Source: Sarea resinae (lineage: Eukaryota). From it: a stretch of 64,000 bases of DNA. The DNA lies in contig JAPEUD010000015.1 of NCBI GenBank assembly GCA_026026165.1, positions 248,001-312,000 on the forward strand. The letters run 5' to 3'. How positions within the stretch are numbered: position 1 is the stretch's first letter; every line of letters begins with the position of its first letter. The translations under genes and the position numbers were made by a program. The notes beneath the pieces are model-generated. The model saw only the letters and a program-made list of their open reading frames with translations. It was not told the DNA's origin and ran no database searches. Below, piece after piece: positions 21,848 to 62,234 of the stretch.

Positions 21848-23005
21848 TCAATCCCCCCACCCAGCGCCCCACCCCGCAGCCTCCTCCGCCCCGACTCGTC
21901 GCTCCTGCACATAGGCGCCCAGGCTCCCGCATCGCTCGGCTAGGACGCACGCGAGGAGGTGCTTGCATATGGGTGGGCCTTGGGCGCCTTGTGTGCCTCC
22001 AGTGCCATCTTCGTTTGCGGGTATGGTTCCGGGTATGGGTTTGGGTTCGGAGCCGGGCTCGGGCTCGTCTCGGCCGAGACCGCCGAAGATGAAGGAGGTT
22101 TCGGCCGGGTTCGGGTTCTGGTACTCGTCTGGCACGGCGGCCGTGGTTGCGGTGGTGGCTGAGGGGGCGTGGCTGGTGCTGGTGCCCGTCGTACTGTTCA
22201 CAGCGGGAGTGGTGGTGGTGGTGGTGCTAGTGGTGGTGCTGGCAAAGGCGGCAAAGGCAAAGGCGGGACAGCTGCAGTTCCAGGCCCGCGGTCGGACTTC
22301 GTAGTGCTGCGCTCCTTCTGTATCCCCCCCTTCTCCTTCTCCTCCTGCTGCTGCTGCTGTTGCCGCTGCCGAGGACATTCTTGAGGCAGCATCCGTGGCC
22401 CTCGGGCGCGAATACCAGTTTGGCCGCGTAGGCCGCGCGCTACGCACATAGTAGACGGCGCTCTGCTGCTGTGCGGTTATATCCCCCTTATCTCTGGGAC
22501 CCGGCGCGCATGTTTCTGTCTCTGGGCCGCTGTGTGCCCCTTCTTTTTTTTCTCCCACTCCTTTCTTGGCTCCGGACTTCGATTCTCCGCCATCGCCTTC
22601 GCCGTCGCCGTCGTTCGAGGCACGCGATACACCCTGCCACTGCTGCTGCCGCCGCTGTTCCGATACGCTCGCTTCACGCGGCAACGGAGCGGGGAGAACG
22701 ACGAGCCTGGTGACGAGACCGCGGTCTAAGAGGTCGAGAGCTGGGAGGAAGAGCGCGGGGAAGATGGCGTGCAGGGTCACGAAGAGCTTCTTCGTCTGCT
22801 CGCCGTTGTCGGTGTTGGCGTGGGCGAGAGATTGGAGGAGGTTCACGGGAGGAGGGTCTGGGGCATGGCCAGGGTTGGAGGGCGTGAGAGGTGCGTTTGG
22901 GGTGGGCGCCGATGGCAGGGCGTTGAAGAGCGCTGTCAGTATGGTTCGAGGCGTTGGCAGTGGAAGGGGCCGAGGCCGAGGCCGAGGCCCAGGGGAGGGC
23001 GACAT
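21848..23005 (-). CDS. SWS1: SWIM zinc-finger protein of the Sws1/ZSWIM7 (Shu complex) type
   Basis: 'LFVTLHAIFP..LPALDLLDRGLV', 'VYYVRS', and a SWIM finger 'YEVRPRAWNCSCPAF...PPICKHLLAC'. Single-exon ORF with low-complexity insertions. Confidence 0.75.
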   Translation of the reverse strand: MSPSPGPRPRPRPLPLPTPRTILTALFNALPSAPTPNAPLTPSNPGHAPDPPPVNLLQSLAHANTDNGEQTKKLFVTLHAIFPALFLPALDLLDRGLVTRLVVLPAPLPREASVSEQRRQQQWQGVSRASNDGDGEGDGGESKSGAKKGVGEKKEGAHSGPETETCAPGPRDKGDITAQQQSAVYYVRSARPTRPNWYSRPRATDAASRMSSAAATAAAAGGEGEGGDTEGAQHYEVRPRAWNCSCPAFAFAAFASTTTSTTTTTTPAVNSTTGTSTSHAPSATTATTAAVPDEYQNPNPAETSFIFGGLGRDEPEPGSEPKPIPGTIPANEDGTGGTQGAQGPPICKHLLACVLAERCGSLGAYVQERRVGAEEAAGWGAGWGD

Positions 23006-36464: not shown

Positions 36465-37739
36465 CTAGTTCGGGCACGCAGCCTGGACGTGTCCGGGTTG
36501 CTTGCACTTGTAGCAGACACGTTCTGACGACACCTCAGACGGGCAGTCACGGCTCAAGTGGCCGACCTCGCCACCTATGAAACGGTTAGCGACGAAATCC
36601 CTCGGGTGAAGTAAAAACTTACAGTTGTAGCACTTTTGGCCCTGGGTGCAGTCTCTCGACATGTGTCCGTATCCGCCGCACGAATAGCAGGTCTGGCCGC
36701 GGCCTCCGTATCCGCCACCACCATAGCTCTGGCTGTTTCCAAAGCCACCTCCGAAGCCGCCTTGAGCTCCTGCCTGAGTGCAATTACGAGCAATGTGGCC
36801 AACTTGACCACACTTGTAGCATTCCCGGCCGTTGCTATCGCCTCCGAAACCACCAGCAGCTTGAGCGCCGTTTGCCTCGTTGGTGCAGTCGCGAGAGATG
36901 TGACCGGCTTGACCGCAACGATAGCATGTCTTCTCCTGAGCACGGTTGGTGCAGTCACGGCCTGGAAAAGTCTTAGTACTCTGGCAATGGCTGTTTTCAA
37001 GCATGGAAACTTACTCATGTGACCCTCCTCTGTGCAAATCATACTGTTAGCTTTACCGGAACAAATTACAGCCACTCCAAGCTGAATGAATAGCACACAT
37101 ACGACCACAGTTGTAGCTAAGAGATGTCAGGGCTGTCTATTTCAATTTGTAAGGCAGTGTCTTACCAGGTACGAGCTCCGCTAGCTCCGCCAGCAGCAGC
37201 ACCCTTGGTGGGGCAGTCCCGGGCCTTTTATTCTCGTCAGGACCATGGCGACGCAGTCAAGTTCCAGAACTGTGAAGAAAACTTACTTGGTGAGTAGTGT
37301 CACCGCCTAGGAAGATACAATGTCAGTGGTACGACAGACACCCTTCGTCATTGTCATTGTGGCAGAGCAGGAACGAGAAAAGAGAGCAAAGATTTTTTTT
37401 GATGGCTGAAACAATCACGGAAGCCAGACGGCATTGAAGATAACGTCTGGGAAAGCTCGCAGGCTTTGCCATTGACTACCGAGCAGAAGGTCTCTATCGA
37501 AGAAATGTTTCGATCGAATTTGTGAGTCGCACGCAGGTCTGAAGATGAAATGGAAGATGGCCGATGTGGATCGATTTGGAACTGAGCGTCCTGGGGACGT
37601 CCACGAACGTGGGAAGAATATCTCGGAAAAGTGTTCAAAGGTGCGCAGTCAAAGCAAACAGGGCACAGCTATTCTCGAAGCAAGTTTGAGACTCACAGGT
37701 GTAACACCCACGGCCTCCAGCAGCATTGCCATAATCCAT
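36465..37739 (-). CDS. GIS2: CNBP/Gis2/Byr3-type zinc-knuckle RNA-binding protein (7 CCHC fingers), 7 exons
   Basis: Spliced MDYGNAAGGRGCYT|CGDTTHQ|ARDCPTKG..RTC|YNCG|QEGHM|SRDCT.. followed by further CxxCxxxGHxxxxC repeats, ending 'CYKCKQPGHVQAACPN'. Confidence 0.92.
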
Positions 37740-53782: not shown

Positions 53783-55374
53783 ATGTCCCAGACCGGGCTC
53801 CCCCATACCGATTCGATCTCGGAGCTAGATCCTCATGCCGGAGATCCAAAGAAGGCAAAGAGTCGGAGGCCAGCAAGTATGGCCACTCGAGCTCCATGCC
53901 AAATATCATGAACTGCAGGGCTGACATACTGGTTCATTCTCTCAGATACCGCTTTTAGACAGCAACGACTCAAGGCCTGGCAGTAAGTGGCCGTTGCGCC
54001 ATTGTCTACTCGAGGCCAGCATGAACGAACTAACCAAACTCCAGACCTATCCTCACGCCTAAAACCGTCTTGCCACTTTTTTTCGCCATCGGAATTATAT
54101 TTGCGCCCATTGGCGGAGTGTTGATATGGGCCAGTGCTCGGGTCAGTGGCGTTCAATCCCTCGCGAAGACGTTATTGAACATTGGATCCTGAGAGCTTTC
54201 AAGCTGACAATTTTCCACTGAACCAGGTTCAAGAGATCGTCCTAGACTATTCAGATTGCTTCGATAAAGCGCCGAATGGAACCACTATCTCAGACTTTGC
54301 GCCCATGCCCGATGGAAAATACTCCTCTTCGTTCCGAGCGTCTTCAAACACCAGTATCGACCAGGGACCTCCTACCTGGAGGCGAAGCTCGAAAATGGTC
54401 CACTATCAACCTGGCGTTGACATTGACACTCCAGTCTGCTCTATCCGGTTTCACATTCCCAATGATATTGGCCCTCCTGTTCTCTTCTATTACCGACTCA
54501 CCAACTTCTACCAAAATCATCGCCGATATGTCAAATCACTCGACACTAATCAGCTCAAGGGTGATGCAGTATCCAATTCAACTATTCATTCGGGTCTCTG
54601 TGATCCATTGAGACTAGATCCCCATGGCAAAGCTTACTACCCATGCGGTCTAATCGCGAATTCTGTCTTCAATGACTCTTTCAGCAGTCCAGTCCTCGTC
54701 AACGTACAGCACAGCGACACCGACAACAAAACTTATCCGATGACTGACAAGGGAATTGCCTGGTCCAGCGATCAAAATGTTTTCGGTATCACGAAATACT
54801 CAGTTGATCAGATTGCGGTGCCACCGAACTGGGTTAAGAGATGGCCCCATGGTTATACAGAGGAGAATCCTCCACCAAACCTAAAGGAGGACGAGCATTT
54901 CCAGGTCTGGATGCGAACAGCTGGTCTTCCGAACTTCAGCAAACTCGCACTACGAAATGATAATCAGACAATGTCTGCTGGCATCTATCAAGTCGATGTG
55001 GAGCTCAGTAAGTTCTAGCTGTGGGACCATTACCTTTGCAAATGCTAAGGCGCCATAGACTTCCCCGTCACGGTCTATGGAGGAACAAAGTCGATCGTCA
55101 TCTCTACCCGCACAGTGATGGGCGGTAAGAACCCCTTCTTAGGGATCGCCTATGTCGTAGTTGGTGGTATCTGTGTGGTCCTCGGAGTACTTTTCACTAT
55201 TACTTCTCTGATCAAGCCGAGGTAAGCCTGCATAATCTTCCTAGCCAGCATTTTCAACTGACACGTGCCAGGAAACTCGGTGATCACACGTATCTCAGTT
55301 GGAACAACACAGATACGCCGAGCACTGCTATCGCGTCAGGACGGGATGTCAGACCGGGAATTAATGCGGCATGA
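53783..55374 (+). CDS. CDC50: Cdc50/Lem3 family P4-ATPase flippase subunit, multi-exon
   Basis: '[29 protein letters not shown]', '[17 protein letters not shown]', 'YPCGLIANS', '[11 protein letters not shown]', '[12 protein letters not shown]'. Confidence 0.93.
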
Positions 55375-56024
55375 AGTATTCGATTTTTGCGTTGTATTTC
55401 TTAATGAGTCTGGTGTTGGCGAACAGGTCTTCTATTTTGCCTTTCTATGTCCTTGCCAACTGCCGATATCATATTCGAGGCTGGACAATCATACGATCAT
55501 TTTCCCTCCGATACTTCAAGATACTGAGATGCGTCACTTCTGAATACTTTTGAGAATGTGCATGATACAATGGTTCCTGGACCTAGTAATAGTCGTCCTG
55601 CTGCGCGCGCGCAAGGAGCTGGCTAAACTTGATCAACGGGACCAAAGGACTGAAGCTGAAACTTTCAAAGTTCGTGATAGCCCTAAGTGAGCACCTCCAC
55701 TGACTGGACAGATGTGATCGCCGCGCCTGGGCTGTTGCCTTGGCTCTCCCCTGACTTGTCACTCTAAAGCTTGCCCCTGCTGTTTCCCTAGGTAGTGCCT
55801 TCCCTTCACAGAAGGGAGTAAGACCATATTGTTATTGCCGCTCAATACCAGCGTTTCTCGGCTCTGCTTCAGCTTCATCAATCACGTCCTGATTTGCAAT
55901 CGCTGCGCGCAAACCATCACGTTGTCCGCTCAATCATCCGTGCGCGGCATATCTTCCTTTAGTTCGGGTGCGTGCAGTCTGGCTTATCTATCAAGCCGTA
56001 TCCAAGCACCACGCGTTGTAGACA

Positions 56025-57073
56025 ATGAAGCGACTTTCATTCGTGTTGTTGCTAGGCTTTGCCTTTCACCTAGTGTCTACTTTTGCACAGATAACCTTTC
56101 CTGACCTGAAACCGTTTCAGTGTGGCACCTTGCCACCAACCGTGGATGCACTGGCAGCCTTTGAAGAGTTCTATGAGAATTCTTTACATCACCACACTGA
56201 TGGGGCTAGGGCTGGTGGAAATGCTACGAGCTCCGTTGTTGACACCGCTCTTGGATACCTGAATGGAAACGGTTTGCATATCGATGTCTATTTTCATGTC
56301 GTTCGGTCGGAAAGGGGTGGGGCGAAGGACATCACGCATCAGCAACTCCTGGAACAGGTTTGTATCTCTCATCCGACAGAAACACTGGCAAAGATCCAGA
56401 GTTGACATTCCATCTAGTTCGATGTCCTCTCAGCCATATACAAACCATACAACGTTCACTTCACTTTGATCAAGACGACGTATACAAACAACACTTCTTG
56501 GGCGTACGGTTGGGCACAAGAAAGTATGGGTCGGGCCCTTCGTCAAGGCTCATACAGAACCTTGAACATCTTCTTCCAAGATTGTATCAATTGCGATCAG
56601 CCCAAAGGCGTTGCCGGTCTCTGTTCTATACCACACAGAATTGAGGTGCGCCGCGATTTCTACGTGGACGCTTGCTACATCCACTATAGCACCCTGCCCG
56701 GTGGTCTCGACGAGAGATACAACTTAGGCTATACCGCGGTCCATGAAGTGGGCCATTGGCTTGGGCTATTGCATACCTTTGAGGGATATGATTGTGAAGG
56801 CCCAGGGGATCTTATCATTGATACTCCGCCGCAGATGGAACCAACCAATGGTTGCCCGAAGAATGCCACCAAGGATACCTGTCCAAATGAGGCGGGGTAC
56901 GACCCGGTGGAAAACTTCATGGACTACTCCTACGACGAGTGGTGAGTTAGCCAGACGTATATCTAGCTACTGGGGTTAGCTGACGATGAGCTCTTTTGAG
57001 CATGACTGGCTTCACGCTTGGACAGGTAGTAAGGATGCACGAATCATTCAATCGATTTCGAAAAGGCAACTAG
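56025..57073 (+). CDS. Secreted M43 (pappalysin-like, MEP1-type) zinc metalloprotease, 3 exons
   Basis: Signal peptide, 'IDVYFHVV', zinc motif HEVGHWLGLLH, and Met-turn 'NFMDYSYD'. Confidence 0.9.
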
Positions 57074-57757
57074 GGCCATGAGATGGGTCTAGAATATTAT
57101 CGAGAGCTTGGAATGCTGCGAAGCGTGAAGGATAGCTTCAGTTGTCTGTTGTGCAAAACTTTGTTTCTTTGGCACGCTCCTTTGTCTCTTGGTATGGGTT
57201 CATTAACGTTAAACGGACTCTTGGAAGGCGTATTAAATTCAGGACAGCAATTGGGAGATAGAGGAACCGAACTATGTTCTGAGGGTAGAGTCTTCGGGAT
57301 TTCTCTCTCACACTGGATCCGTTACAATGTGCCTCTTTTCGGTAGCTAAACGACTGACGAAGAAAACTGATACCACCTTGCTTTTACTTAACTCCATTAC
57401 CGTAAATAGCACTTACGGCCACGGTCACATGTGAAGAGATGATGGGGACTACGGTTTGATAGCTGTCTGCTTTATCTGCCTTAGGTGTATTGATGAGAGA
57501 GAACTCTATCAAAACAAGATGAAGGATGGGTGCTAAGATTTCAGTAGGCTTCTCGAATCGTTGATCTGGAGGCTGTTGACGTGTGTGCAAAGACCAGACG
57601 CCTTTGTGAATAGGAGAAGCTGTGAATTGGCTCTCGTCGACAGTGCAACCAGCTAGAAAGGGAAGAAAAAGTTAAGATTGACTGTGAAAGATATTCACCG
57701 AGAGAAGAAATGAAGTGTTACTGTCTATCTTGAGAGGTGGTTTTCAGGAGACTCACT

Positions 57758-57764
57758 TATAAAA
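57758..57764 (+). promoter_or_regulatory. Candidate TATA box (TATAAAA) 130 bp upstream of the Gag-like ORF
   Basis: Perfect TATAAAA followed by a pyrimidine-rich leader before the ATG at 57888. Confidence 0.5.
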
Positions 57765-57887
57765 CCGTCACGGCCATCTTCACCTTTACCGTCACCATCC
57801 TTCATCATCATTATCAGACGATAGTCTCAATCATATCGTCTGATCAGCCAGATTACTCCAATTCATCCCGGCTTATCATCATTGCCC

Positions 57888-58490
57888 ATGTCCGGCAGCT
57901 CCCATCCTGACATGGCATCTGGCATCCAGAGCAGCAATGGCCTTTACAACACCAAGAAGCTCAACGGGACTTCAAACTACGAGATGTGGATGACAGATAT
58001 GAGGACTGAGCTCTGCCGCGAGGATGTATGGGGCATAGTCGACGGGAGCGAACCTAGGCCCACTCTGGTCTCTCAAACCGATTCGACGACCGCGGAATAC
58101 GACAAGCTGCTTGAGGACTTCAGCCTCAAGAAAGTCGAGTGGAACCGCAAGAACCAGAAGGCCCGTATTTGTCTAGTCCTTTGCCTCTCGGAGGCGCCCA
58201 GGAAGGAAGTACAAGCACTCGATGACTCGGCCGAGATCTGGGCCCGATTAAAGAAGCTCTACCAGCCGAAAGGGACAGGCCAGAGATACACGTCTTTCGT
58301 CGCTCTCATGGAGGCCAAGCGGGAACACCACGGCTCCATCGAGGCATACAAGTCTCACATGGCTGAGCATGCGAAGGTGTGTGCGCACGTGGGAAGCCCG
58401 ATTCCGGACTGGGTGATGGACTCGCTCGTCCGCCATGGTCTGCCAGACAACTATCGTGGTTCCACCGGCTACGAGCCCAGCAAGACGTGA
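57888..58490 (+). CDS. Stand-alone Ty1/copia-type Gag (capsid; Retrotran_gag_2/UBN2-like) protein, about 200 aa
   Basis: Copia Gag pattern 'KLNGTSNYEMW..M...L....VWGIVDG.E.RP', 'W.RKNQKA..L.L.LS', 'SAEIWARLKKLY', 'SIEAY', 'L.HGLPDNY'. No zinc knuckle, protease or pol follows. Confidence 0.8.
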   Translation: MSGSSHPDMASGIQSSNGLYNTKKLNGTSNYEMWMTDMRTELCREDVWGIVDGSEPRPTLVSQTDSTTAEYDKLLEDFSLKKVEWNRKNQKARICLVLCLSEAPRKEVQALDDSAEIWARLKKLYQPKGTGQRYTSFVALMEAKREHHGSIEAYKSHMAEHAKVCAHVGSPIPDWVMDSLVRHGLPDNYRGSTGYEPSKT

Positions 58491-59030
58491 GGGAAGCGGA
58501 GATGCTCGTGGTGGCCACTGGCTCAAAGGTCGCAAGGTGAGCTTCATCACGACGGACTAGGTCTGCCTTGGCTTGCCGCTGCGGCCGTTCTGATGCTGTC
58601 TCTGCCGCCTTGTTGCATTGGGGAGGAAGTGTTGGAACAGAAGCCAATTGATGCGCTGTTCTTCCTTTGACCAGATGTCTATACTTGGTACTACATCATC
58701 TAGCCATAACAAGAAAATGTCTCCGCCGATGTAGAAGACTTGAAGCTGTGACTCTGTTGAAACTTCAGACTGTGCAGCTGTTGTGGTTGTGAATAGTGAA
58801 TTGACGCGGTTGCTTGCTATCGCTTGCCCGGCCAATCTTTATCGTATTGCCCCACGTCACGTCAGAGCTTGAGCTGTTCATGCGAGCTGCCCCAGTCCTC
58901 CAGGAACGTCATTGTCGCGCCCTCACCAAAGCTCTATTGCAGTACCAGTTTGCTGCTCCATCAAGCTTCCAACTCTGACGAGACTTCCTCGGGCTATAGC
59001 TTCAATTGTCGCAGAGAATCAGACAGAAAA

Positions 59031-61218
59031 ATGTTCAAAAAGAAGCCCAATGTATGCAAACAAAGACCGACGGCTACCCCTCCAGACGGGCACTAACGAA
59101 TGCGAAGATCAAACCTCTTTCGCCAATCAGGTCTTCTGATCGTCGAAGGATCGCAGATCAGATCATACTGGACTGCAAGCTCAAGCCGACGCCTAGCAAT
59201 GAGGCCGATCCTCAAGACAAGGCCGCCGAGGTCGCCGCAATTTCTTCCCTTCGAAACGCTCTGCTCCCTGAGAGCTGCCTCTCTGCAAGGTTCGAGACGA
59301 CAGCAGGACCCGATTTGAAGCGTGTCTCTGGAACAGTCTATGTTGGCGCATATGCTGGGAAAGAGCAGCGGGTTTTATGGGTGAAGCTCAATGAGAGGAT
59401 GTACCCGACAGGTAAGGCCTTTGGACAATGCATTCGATCAAGCAGCTACTGACACTGCTGGATCATGGTAGTGTATACATTATGGCACAATCCGGGAATT
59501 GTTCCTCTCCTCCATACGCCAGAACCAGTCTTGCATAAACTACAAGGAGGTGCCGATCTGATGACGCCCGGTCTTGCGGGCCCACCTTTTCCGTCTGGCG
59601 CAACGAAAGACTCCATCGTGGCCGTAGCGAGCCTCGAAAATCCCAGCGTTCCAAAGTTTGTTGGCGTTTGCGAGATTGATGTCAGTTCCCTGCAGGCCGT
59701 CCAAGGCGTGAAGGGCCACGCAGTCAGAGGAATACACTGGGATGGGGACGAGCTCTGGGCATGGAGTACAGCTGGAAAGCCTGGAGGCATTGCGCCTCCG
59801 CATATTGAAGGATGGGATCAAGCGAATACGGAAGATCATCAGCTTGAGGATGGAGCAAGCAGATTGACCATTGGCGAGAATGGCGAAGATAGTCAAGCGG
59901 ACGGTGGAGTCGTACTGGATGCCGGGTCGAAGAACGGGCAAAGCCAAATTACTACGAGCGCTGGGATGAGAGAAGAAGAAGAAGAAGAAGAAGAAGAAGA
60001 GCCTTTCGAGAAAGTACAGATCGAGGATAAAGAATTATCTACAAAAGGTACAGCATCCCCTCGACCGAGTGAGATGCAATTTCTAATACGAGCAACTTGC
60101 CAGAGATCGACGACGCTTTCCGAAAGGCGTTCATCTACGGACTTTATCATCACAAAACTCAATACAAAGAACAGCCTAGCTTTGGTCTCGAATTTCCTCT
60201 AACGCAGTCTTCTGTCATGTCTACTTTAGTCCAGCCCTTTCTGCCAGCATTCACAGCCGCGCAAACGGCCTCATTGCAGATGAAAAAGACTAGCTGGAAG
60301 AACATCAAGAAATTCATGAAATCTTTGGATAAGCAAGGACTTGTCAAAACCAAAGACAGGGACAAAAATGAGGTCGTCATCTTGGACGTCGATTTCGACG
60401 ACCAGGCGATCAATCAATTCGTTCCTTACAGATTACCGAAAAGGGAACCTACTAGCACTACTGGAGCAACGGGTAACAAGGCCAGCACTGGTGATGCTCC
60501 GGCAGACGGCGAAATCGGCCAGAAACTTACCAAGGCCAATCTGTATCGGCCGACTGCGAAGCTAGGGGCTCTATTTGAAGCCGCCAATGCTGGGTAATTT
60601 GCACGTCAATGTCTTGAGGGAGACCGGCTGACTTTCCTTAGAATTAAATCCTTGTATTTGGCAAGTGAGATCCGGACCGTAGTCACAGCTTACGTCGAAG
60701 CAGAGAATCTCGTATCCAGCACGAACAAACGTCTAGTCTCACTGAACCCCGTTTTGGCAAATGCAGTCTTCGACGGAAAATCTGCCATGGATTCGGAGGT
60801 CATAAGCAAAGGGAGCGTGCCGCGAGATAGCCTCGTCGAGCGCGTCATCCAAGCCTGTTCGCCGTTCTGGGCGATTCTTCGCGGCGATGAAACGAAGGAC
60901 GAAGTGAAGCCAAAAGCAGGCGCGGCACCTAAGATCAAAATCCTCTTGGAGACAAGATCCGGAAATAAGACGGTTACAAAGGTATCAGGCGTAGAGGCGT
61001 ACTATATCAACCCGCAAACGTTGGCGGATGAGCTTCGAAAAGCATGCGCAGGGTCGACCAGTGTTGATCAATTGGTGGGCAGTAGCCCTAAAAACCCGGT
61101 AATGGAGGTCATGGTACAAGGACCCCAGAAAGAGATTGTCATCCGAGCGTTGGAGAAGCGGGGTGTCAACAAGCAATGGGTCGAGGTGGTCGATAAAACG
61201 AAAGGGAAGAAAAAATAG
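59031..61218 (+). CDS. TMA64: eIF2D/ligatin (Tma64) translation re-initiation/recycling factor, multi-exon
   Basis: 'MFKKKPN|IKPLSPIRSSDRRR', PUA region 'VYTLWHNP..KLQGGADLMTPG', 'KKTSWKNIKKFMK', and SUI1 domain 'ETRSGNKTVTKVSGVE..ELRKACAGSTSV..EVMVQG'. Confidence 0.92.
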
Positions 61219-62234
61219 ACACAAAAGGGGCAAAGCATGTTTCAGGAGTATGCGATTGGCTAGCCGCCAATCGAGTTTGAATAGGAGTAGAAATCCAGAA
61301 ATGTCCAGCAAAGTCATGGACGACAGTAATTGCAGTTTCAATTTCCAAAGCGTGACATTTGCGATTTTCTCCGTCGCGTGTCGGACGAGCGTTCCAATGC
61401 TTTTTTTGCTCTGGGCGCCGCGTCGCTTTTATTGATTGATTCTTGTGGGAGACTGGTGTAGCGTGAATGGGAGCTCCTGGAGGGGTTGCGATGTGGCGTT
61501 TCAGGGCCGAGAGCTTCGTTGGACCCCTGTGTTCTGTTCGCTTCGATGTTGGCGACGACGATCATCAGCACAGGAAATGCTTTGTGATGATGATGATGAA
61601 GTTGCATCCCTGACCTCGACTGCAATCTCATCTCACCACCACGGCAGCTGTCAACGAGTTTCGATACGATCGATCTTCACTGGCGAACGAGATCAATATT
61701 CATGATCTTGATATCCTCATCTTGGCCACGGTCGCGAGCAGAGAACGAGCAAGGCCAAAACAGTTGACGTAAAATTGGCCGAGTCCCTTTACCCCCGTCT
61801 CTCCTCTCCTCGCAGGCCTCTCGTACTCGCCACAATGATGCACACCACTGGACTCGACACCCTCGAGCGGCGCATATAGTACTCGCAGTTGGCTGGATTT
61901 GTAGACATCATCGTCGCCGTCCAATACCGATTATTGTCGATATATCGCAAAGGCCGAGGCATCTGCGACGATTGCGTTACTTACTAATCTGCTGGTGTGG
62001 TCTCCCCTTCGCTCGAGCGTTTGCGAGACACTGCTCTGCGACCTTGCTGCCCCACCGTTCGCTGGGCAATTGGCTACAACATCGATCGCAGAGTGTCATT
62101 CAGCCTTGACACCTAAAAGTGCGTCTGGCGCGAACGGATGGCTCTTTACACGTACCAGAATACCCCGATCATCGTCAAAGTTCTGATAAGTTTTGTCAAG
62201 TAGACGCGCATTCAAGACGAATGCGCACTTAGAG

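Follow-up and report, generated by a model that had tools for sequence, protein, structure and literature searches.

A stretch of 64,000 nucleotides from the fungus Sarea resinae (contig JAPEUD010000015.1 of assembly GCA_026026165.1, positions 248,001 to 312,000 of the forward strand; hereafter the window, with all coordinates counted from its first letter) harbors a stand-alone gag open reading frame (ORF) of the Ty1/copia type at 57888..58490 (+), which covers the capsid (CA) only and was recognized in the ORF list, by Pfam, by a copia hidden Markov model (HMM) and in an AlphaFold2 model. This gag ORF is the only detectable remnant of a Ty1/copia long terminal repeat (LTR) retrotransposon in the window, of which pol, the two LTRs and the zinc knuckle have been lost, and it encodes the N-terminal domain (NTD) of the capsid and most of the C-terminal domain (CTD), the capsid domain being short of its final ~24-35 residues. 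In our estimation the balance tips slightly towards an ORF that is kept by the host rather than a dead fragment, and we consider its domestication plausible and partly supported, if unproven. The whole reading, i.e., a host-kept gag gene whose product acts as a capsid decoy, is put forward tentatively, as it falls a little short of an even chance.

A solitary copia-type gag reading frame

The gag ORF starts with an ATG, runs intact through 200 codons to a stop codon and lies within a stop-to-stop frame of 221 codons (57825..58490), in agreement with a first-pass annotation that, from the letters alone, had noticed an uninterrupted copia-type Gag ORF of about 200 amino acids (aa). The same annotation had proposed a HMMER search with two Pfam families, both with a gathering cut-off of 27. 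Retrotran_gag_2 (PF14223) matches aa 38-189 above this cut-off (E-value 2e-16, 60.4 bits), a score that falls within the range of 38.8-177.9 bits seen in 16 relatives, while DUF4219 (aa 25-51, E-value 1.3e-4) reaches 22 bits and remains below it. Three residues of the gag ORF, N30, W34 and W48, occupy near-invariant columns in a 71-sequence alignment. An HMM built from nine copia polyproteins and run with hmmsearch --max on the six-frame translation of the entire window (2,285 pieces) also matched the gag ORF (E-value 1e-37, HMM positions 5-174). The ESM Atlas returned generic copia-gag clusters only, mostly of plant origin, and added nothing beyond Pfam.

The stop codon had been thought to fall just after the capsid-like region, and on this point the sequence says otherwise. 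The gag ORF covers only positions 1-137 of the 172 in the Retrotran_gag_2 profile, as compared with positions 164-171 reached by all 16 relatives scanned, and its final 11 residues have no match within the family; in the structural comparison given below it breaks off at the counterpart of Copia residue ~162. The stop codon lies within the capsid domain. No remains of a gag C-terminus were found past the stop in any frame of 58491-59030 (copia HMM, E-value of 10 or better).

The remaining parts of a copia element are missing as well, as the first-pass annotation had maintained. The six-frame search detected no remnant of protease, integrase or reverse transcriptase in the 64-kb window (no pol match with an E-value better than 0.12), the gag ORF itself contains no CCHC zinc knuckle, and no LTR pair is present, all direct repeats in 55000-62000 being at most 23 nt long (the longest, 23 nt, at 74% identity). 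Only two TGGT starts that could open a primer-binding site occur in 56951-57888, and by eye neither of them looks complementary to a tRNA. At 57371-57383, ~500 bp upstream of the gag ORF, the + strand reads GATACCACC, and its reverse complement has a beginning similar to that of primer-binding sites which, in some copia elements, pair with the 3' end of a tRNA; given its distance and a strand that is wrong for the gag ORF, this likeness is probably due to chance. The sole other match of the copia HMM in the window, at 36468-37010 (-), is owed to zinc knuckles (zf-CCHC E-value 5.5e-34, three stretches) in a piece of an unrelated host gene that shows no other sign of a transposon and presumably resembles a CNBP/GIS2-type protein.

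The first-pass annotation had seen no obvious damage by repeat-induced point mutation (RIP), and indeed the gag ORF carries no RIP signature, its indices (TpA/ApT 0.55, (CpA+TpG)/(ApC+GpT) 1.26) being like those of the whole window (0.64 and 1.23). GC content at the three codon positions (GC1/2/3) is 0.54/0.44/0.73, and in a ranking of 12 that includes 11 pieces of host ORFs from the window, the gag ORF comes third both in GC3 and in the codon adaptation index (CAI, 0.823), which lies ~5 standard deviations above a uniform-synonymous null (0.754 +/- 0.014). GC3 holds at 0.70-0.75 in five of five 120-nt bins of the gag ORF, as compared with 0.40 before the ATG and 0.57 after the stop. In the segment immediately downstream (58488-58607) third-position GC in the gag frame is 0.57 (0.75 before the stop), and first-position GC is 0.70 vs 0.57 and 0.57, which is not significant with n = 40 codons. 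This strong codon-position bias from ATG to stop is compatible with a gene that is maintained and also with a remnant of very recent origin, given that drift lasting long enough to erase LTRs, primer-binding site, knuckle and pol should also have erased the frame and its periodicity, which leaves either maintenance or a young deletion remnant. An antisense ORF of 99 codons (58248-58547, -) covers the last part of the gag ORF and most likely exists only because GC3 in the sense frame is high.

Predicted capsid fold and a possible decoy role

The AlphaFold2 model of the gag ORF, built with 70 relatives, has a mean pLDDT (predicted local distance difference test) of 90.3. Its capsid NTD spans ~aa 25-125 (57960..58262, +), as delimited by predicted helices (H31-44, H48-52, H68-98, H102-108 and H114-125) and structural alignment, and includes the weak DUF4219 motif. 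The truncated CTD follows at ~aa 129-195 (58272..58472, +), as delimited by structural alignment and the end of the Pfam match, and then comes the 11-residue tail before the stop. A profile of the gag ORF and its 70 relatives matches the Drosophila Copia virus-like particle protein (8vvw, E-value 1.4e-31; 8s41, E-value 7.7e-23), and these two Copia capsids also hold ranks 1-2 in a Foldseek search with the model. In VIA-align, model residues 18-197 are placed on residues 3-162 of Copia 8vvw_A with a Z of 12.3 (156 residues, root-mean-square deviation (rmsd) 6.9), and the Z for 8s41_A is 10.1. A two-domain retroviral-type capsid fold can be predicted for the gag ORF with confidence by the structure prediction that the first-pass annotation had suggested as a check. 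The Copia CA comprises residues 1-186 and is followed by a nucleocapsid (NC) with a zinc finger at 186-270 (passages of PMC11835246); with a match that ends at residue 162, the gag ORF is therefore without ~24 CA residues and all of the NC.

The same model resembles other capsids to a lesser degree. Its residues 129-194 align to residues 261-327 of Ty1 Gag (7nlh_B, Z 6.6), and the CTD also aligns to Drt2 (9rxy_B, Z 7.4, rmsd 2.3, 64 residues), the two comparisons together covering 64-66 residues at an rmsd of 2.3-2.6. Matches were likewise obtained to the CTD of PEG10 (7lga_A, Z 7.7) and, over 131-140 residues, to dArc1 (6s7x_B, Z 7.2) and PNMA2 (8rb3, Z 6.7), although the Z values for dArc1, PNMA2 and PEG10 are in a range that the alignment tool calls common for helical proteins. 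A two-copy homodimer prediction of the gag protein, in which the alignment was not used, gave no verdict, with a score of 0.48 vs 0.29 for a single control.

What such a protein might do in the cell is suggested by restriction factors of yeast. Ty1 p18/p22 and Drt2 restrict by exchange into Gag dimers via an interface called Dimer-1 (residues 266, 270, 312 and 315 on helices alpha1 and alpha3), which carries the restriction by p18m and Drt2m, while Dimer-2 (F323, Y326 and Y329) is dispensable for restriction and matters for Gag function, F323S lowering Ty1 retromobility about 100-fold (all from passages of PMC12530519). Given the match of model residues 129-194 to residues 261-327 of Ty1 Gag, the counterpart of Dimer-1 would be present in the gag protein and the CTD would be missing from inside the Dimer-2 patch onwards. 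The Dimer-1 match is a structural counterpart in a predicted model, its residues not being conserved at an identity of 16-17% to Ty1.

The first-pass annotation had proposed a host-retained copia Gag that acts either as a capsid-like particle or as an anti-retrotransposon factor. The first half of this proposal gains from the gene-like state of the gag ORF (intact, single at a likeness of at least 80%, free of RIP and biased in its codons), while the particle is weakened by the ~24 CTD residues and the knuckle that are missing. Without an RNA-binding knuckle and the end of the CTD, the gag protein alone is unlikely to form RNA-packaging particles; an anti-retrotransposon factor is possible because the structural counterpart of Dimer-1 is kept. 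We postulate that the most likely mode of action would be that of a capsid decoy, in which the kept counterpart of the alpha1/alpha3 surface would allow binding to related full-length Gag, so that the gag protein could be incorporated when related copia elements build their shells and would poison these. As the NTD is kept, unlike in p22 and Drt2, this would be a near-full-length capsid decoy. We infer such an action from the predicted fold. In its most specific form, i.e., a lineage-specific near-full-length decoy against copia elements in an isolated lineage of Pezizomycotina and the first such in a filamentous fungus, we regard the proposal as rather unlikely.

Locus, copy number and rival explanations

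The gag ORF sits in a gap of 1,957 bp, close to the ~2 kb that the first-pass annotation had given, between a gene for an M43 metallopeptidase and one for eIF2D/TMA64, with all three genes on the + strand. The upstream neighbor was recovered as exon pieces at 56025..57073 (+; Pfam Peptidase_M43 E-value 1.7e-9), with the stop of its last exon at 57071-57073. The downstream neighbor (59031..61218, +; WH_eIF2D E-value 1.1e-18, SUI1 E-value 8.6e-22) has a putative ATG at 59031, 540 bp from the gag stop, and an N-terminal peptide that we take to be typical of TMA64. A TATAAAA motif, found by motif search at 57758..57764 (+), is a candidate core promoter located 130 bp 5' of the gag ATG, exactly as annotated before, and the gag gene may be transcribed from this upstream region of its own. 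Between TATA and ATG, in the putative 5' leader, RNA folding and the sequence reveal an inverted repeat whose 11-bp arms match perfectly around a loop of 10 nt (57813..57844, +; arms 57813-57823 and 57834-57844); the 143-nt fold of 57758-57900 has an energy of -25.9 kcal/mol. This hairpin could be inherited from the element or could be a regulatory stem. The window as a whole is ordinary gene-dense ascomycete chromatin, with genes that include TRAPPC10, HOOK, a JAB/MPN subunit, coproporphyrinogen oxidase (HEM13), a pof12-like F-box protein, SAE2, SWIRM and CDC50. Its sole tRNA gene is a tRNA-Arg (TCG) at 22035-22129 (+), whose length of 95 nt suggests an intron.

A public read set that covers the window completely and is its likely source (run X1) provided contigs for the locus. 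A 3,026-bp contig spans 56972-59962 at a depth of 353 (383 and 336 in the adjoining contigs), and all six aligned X1 records are collinear with the window and at least 99% alike. The contigs of this run break at a run of glutamate codons in the eIF2D gene (59963-60006, nine E), where the repeat is skipped, and loose ends of X1 contigs at 54349 and 57001 carry 19-nt sequences, an assembly artefact that presumably stems from library adapter remnants. The copy count that had been proposed as a check yielded no second gag copy at a likeness of at least 80% among the contigs of this one run, in which a filter can leave records out; at this threshold and within this read set the gag ORF is single-copy, a property by which co-opted gag genes are recognized. 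Two further runs of the same study (X2 and X3) were considered as a source of synteny and set aside, as they gave only 32-80-nt scraps at 80% likeness and thus come from unrelated organisms.

Relatives of the gag ORF are distant. An exhaustive HMMER search of 1.84 billion representatives returned 495 matches with an E-value of at most 1e-3, 27 at 1e-10 or below and none at 1e-30 or below. Among 20 matches that were looked up, the named records belong to Lecanoromycetes only (Umbilicaria, Lepraria and Lasallia), none of them to Xylona, and one close match (P0003, 32% identical) combines Gag, protease and integrase in a fragment that also has a knuckle. A word-index search among longer proteins yielded a single copia polyprotein of 1,431 aa out of 312 candidates, at 24% identity, and the protein collection contains no exact copy of the gag ORF protein. 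In a maximum-likelihood tree of the gag ORF and 70 relatives it falls into no supported clade, and its end branch measures 1.48 changes per site as compared with a median of 0.73, which may hint at its age. Judging by an exon of HEM13, the nearest named relatives of the host are Xylona heveae (86% identity) and Cirrosporium (81%), and with the nearest of these only 86% identical the collections contain no closely related genome. None of 55 metagenome loci with eIF2D, found by way of its SUI1 domain (tblastn, E-value 1e-3 or better; 23 loci with >3 kb upstream), carried M43, CDC50, Kelch, SWIRM or gag nearby, which indicates that relatives as remote as these no longer share the gene order, so that this result is uninformative rather than negative.

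How much of this speaks for a host gene? The most serious rival is a neutral remnant, in which a low-copy, perhaps single-copy, copia element inserted between M43 and eIF2D and then lost pol, the LTRs and the 3' part of gag through one or more deletions, leaving a functionless piece that has yet to acquire a stop or frameshift; we regard this as a real possibility, if a somewhat improbable one. Several observations favor it and weigh against retention by the host. The frame stops within a conserved domain whose end is reached by all 16 relatives scanned, and it closes with 11 unrelated residues, just as a random deletion endpoint and read-through past the deletion joint would produce. No ortholog was recovered, be it as a near-length relative (none of 40 candidates in a word-index search of the protein collection) or in metagenome DNA of the Joint Genome Institute (JGI; none of 45 pattern matches), and the best relative among the 1.84 billion representatives is 34% identical, a distance at which dN/dS would be saturated; this is a lineage-specific distribution that is equally expected of a dead remnant. 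The protein collection holds the HEM13 gene call from the same contig (P0155, 100% identical) and no call for the gag ORF, although the missing call shows only that one pipeline did not make it. If the parent element already had such codon usage, a remnant of very recent date would show the same codon signature. Moreover, no cognate copia element is known in the genome, so a decoy would have no shown target. Compact fungal genomes often carry element families at one or two copies, and for this reason the missing second gag copy does not demand selection either. However, an old remnant should have lost both frame and codon-position bias, whereas here a GC3 of 0.70-0.75 ends exactly at the stop and the CAI ranks third of 12; a young remnant, in turn, should have left a parent or sister copy, and none at 80% likeness or above is present in the source read set, the best relative being the one at 34%. 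Deletion instead of decay would reconcile both objections, and the argument is not decisive: an intact solo gag and a young deletion remnant are not separable without the genome of a close relative or RNA data. A dead remnant would be an ordinary find.

Two further explanations appear less probable. The host may have kept a capsid that still self-assembles and serves a cellular role such as transfer or scaffolding, in the manner of Arc/dArc1, PEG10 and PNMA, and not restriction. The prediction is highly confident for the NTD as well as the CTD, the model aligns to dArc1 and PNMA2 over the 131-140 residues mentioned above, and the solved structure of dArc1 capsids shows no bound RNA (figure legend in PMC11835246), yet the gag protein misses ~24 CA residues, can be matched to Ty1 Gag only up to residue 327, inside the Dimer-2 patch, and has no RNA-binding domain, which makes this explanation distinctly unlikely. 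The gag ORF might also be exon 1 of a longer gene in which splicing fuses gag to downstream sequence, its stop not being the true end. Candidate splice signals can be discerned by eye (GTGAGG at 58487, across the stop codon; GTGAGC at ~58536; a CTGAT branch-like motif and AG at ~58590-58625), but the three downstream frames of 58491-59030 lack a match to the copia HMM, the codon-position bias stops at the stop codon and only 540 bp are left before the eIF2D ATG, all of which makes this explanation very improbable.

Comparison with known systems

The closest structural relative of the gag ORF product is Drosophila Copia Gag (8vvw, 8s41), with which it shares family and predicted fold (Z 12.3) at a sequence identity of 18-19%. 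Copia Gag consists of a complete CA and a zinc-finger NC and belongs to an active LTR element (passages of PMC11835246), whereas the gag ORF goes no further than the counterpart of residue ~162. The stand-alone host genes Arc/dArc1, PEG10 and PNMA2 have the same two-lobed retroviral-type CA fold; unlike the gag ORF, they are derived from Ty3/gypsy elements, occur in animals, retain a complete CA and have been shown to form particles.

The first-pass annotation had drawn its precedents from animals and yeast only, which overlooked two cases in filamentous ascomycetes. Wang and Han described Crtg12 and Crtg13 in 2021 as co-opted Ty1/copia gag genes of Dothideomycetes; both are single-copy, stand-alone Retrotran_gag_2 genes and were defined by synteny across families together with the ratio of nonsynonymous to synonymous substitution rates (dN/dS; 0.115 for Crtg13 and 0.996 for Crtg12); in the passages of that report, no closely related retrotransposon was found for Crtg13 (PMC8321522). 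With ~217 codons and Retrotran_gag_2 as its only domain, Crtg12 is much like the gag ORF of 200 codons (PMC8321522, in part). Crtg12 adjoins an AbiEii-domain gene and Crtg13 lies between the PTZ00376 and ACPS genes (same passages of PMC8321522), and as the flanks differ from the M43 and eIF2D genes found here, we rejected the gag ORF as a syntenic ortholog of either, a comparison made by locus and not by sequence. The hosts differ too, those of Crtg12 and Crtg13 being Dothideomycetes and that of the gag ORF being nearest to Xylona (86% in HEM13). Co-option of copia gag in fungi has already been described with Crtg12/13 and Drt2, and the gag ORF is at best a further, lineage-specific case. If it is under selection, it would represent an independent and recent capture of a copia capsid in a poorly sampled fungal lineage, next to the three deep gag co-options and the yeast DRT2 that have so far been described in fungi.

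Yeast offers the nearest functional parallel. DRT2 is a precedent for a restriction factor derived from a gag of the Ty1 family (passages of PMC10951436), and Ty1 p22/p18 and Drt2 (7nlh, 9rxy) are, like the gag ORF, gag-derived, devoid of NC and of Ty1/copia (Pseudoviridae) origin. Drt2 has a known target, Ty1', and a measured restriction, while the gag ORF is known from sequence and model. The architecture is a different one: p22/p18 and Drt2 consist of the CTD only, and of a complete one (Gag 259-351), whereas in the gag ORF the NTD is present and the CTD ends at the counterpart of residue ~327. Should the decoy reading prove true, the gag ORF would encode a restriction factor of another architecture than the CTD-only p22 and Drt2, and a decoy that keeps its NTD could be compared with them to learn which capsid surfaces suffice for restriction.

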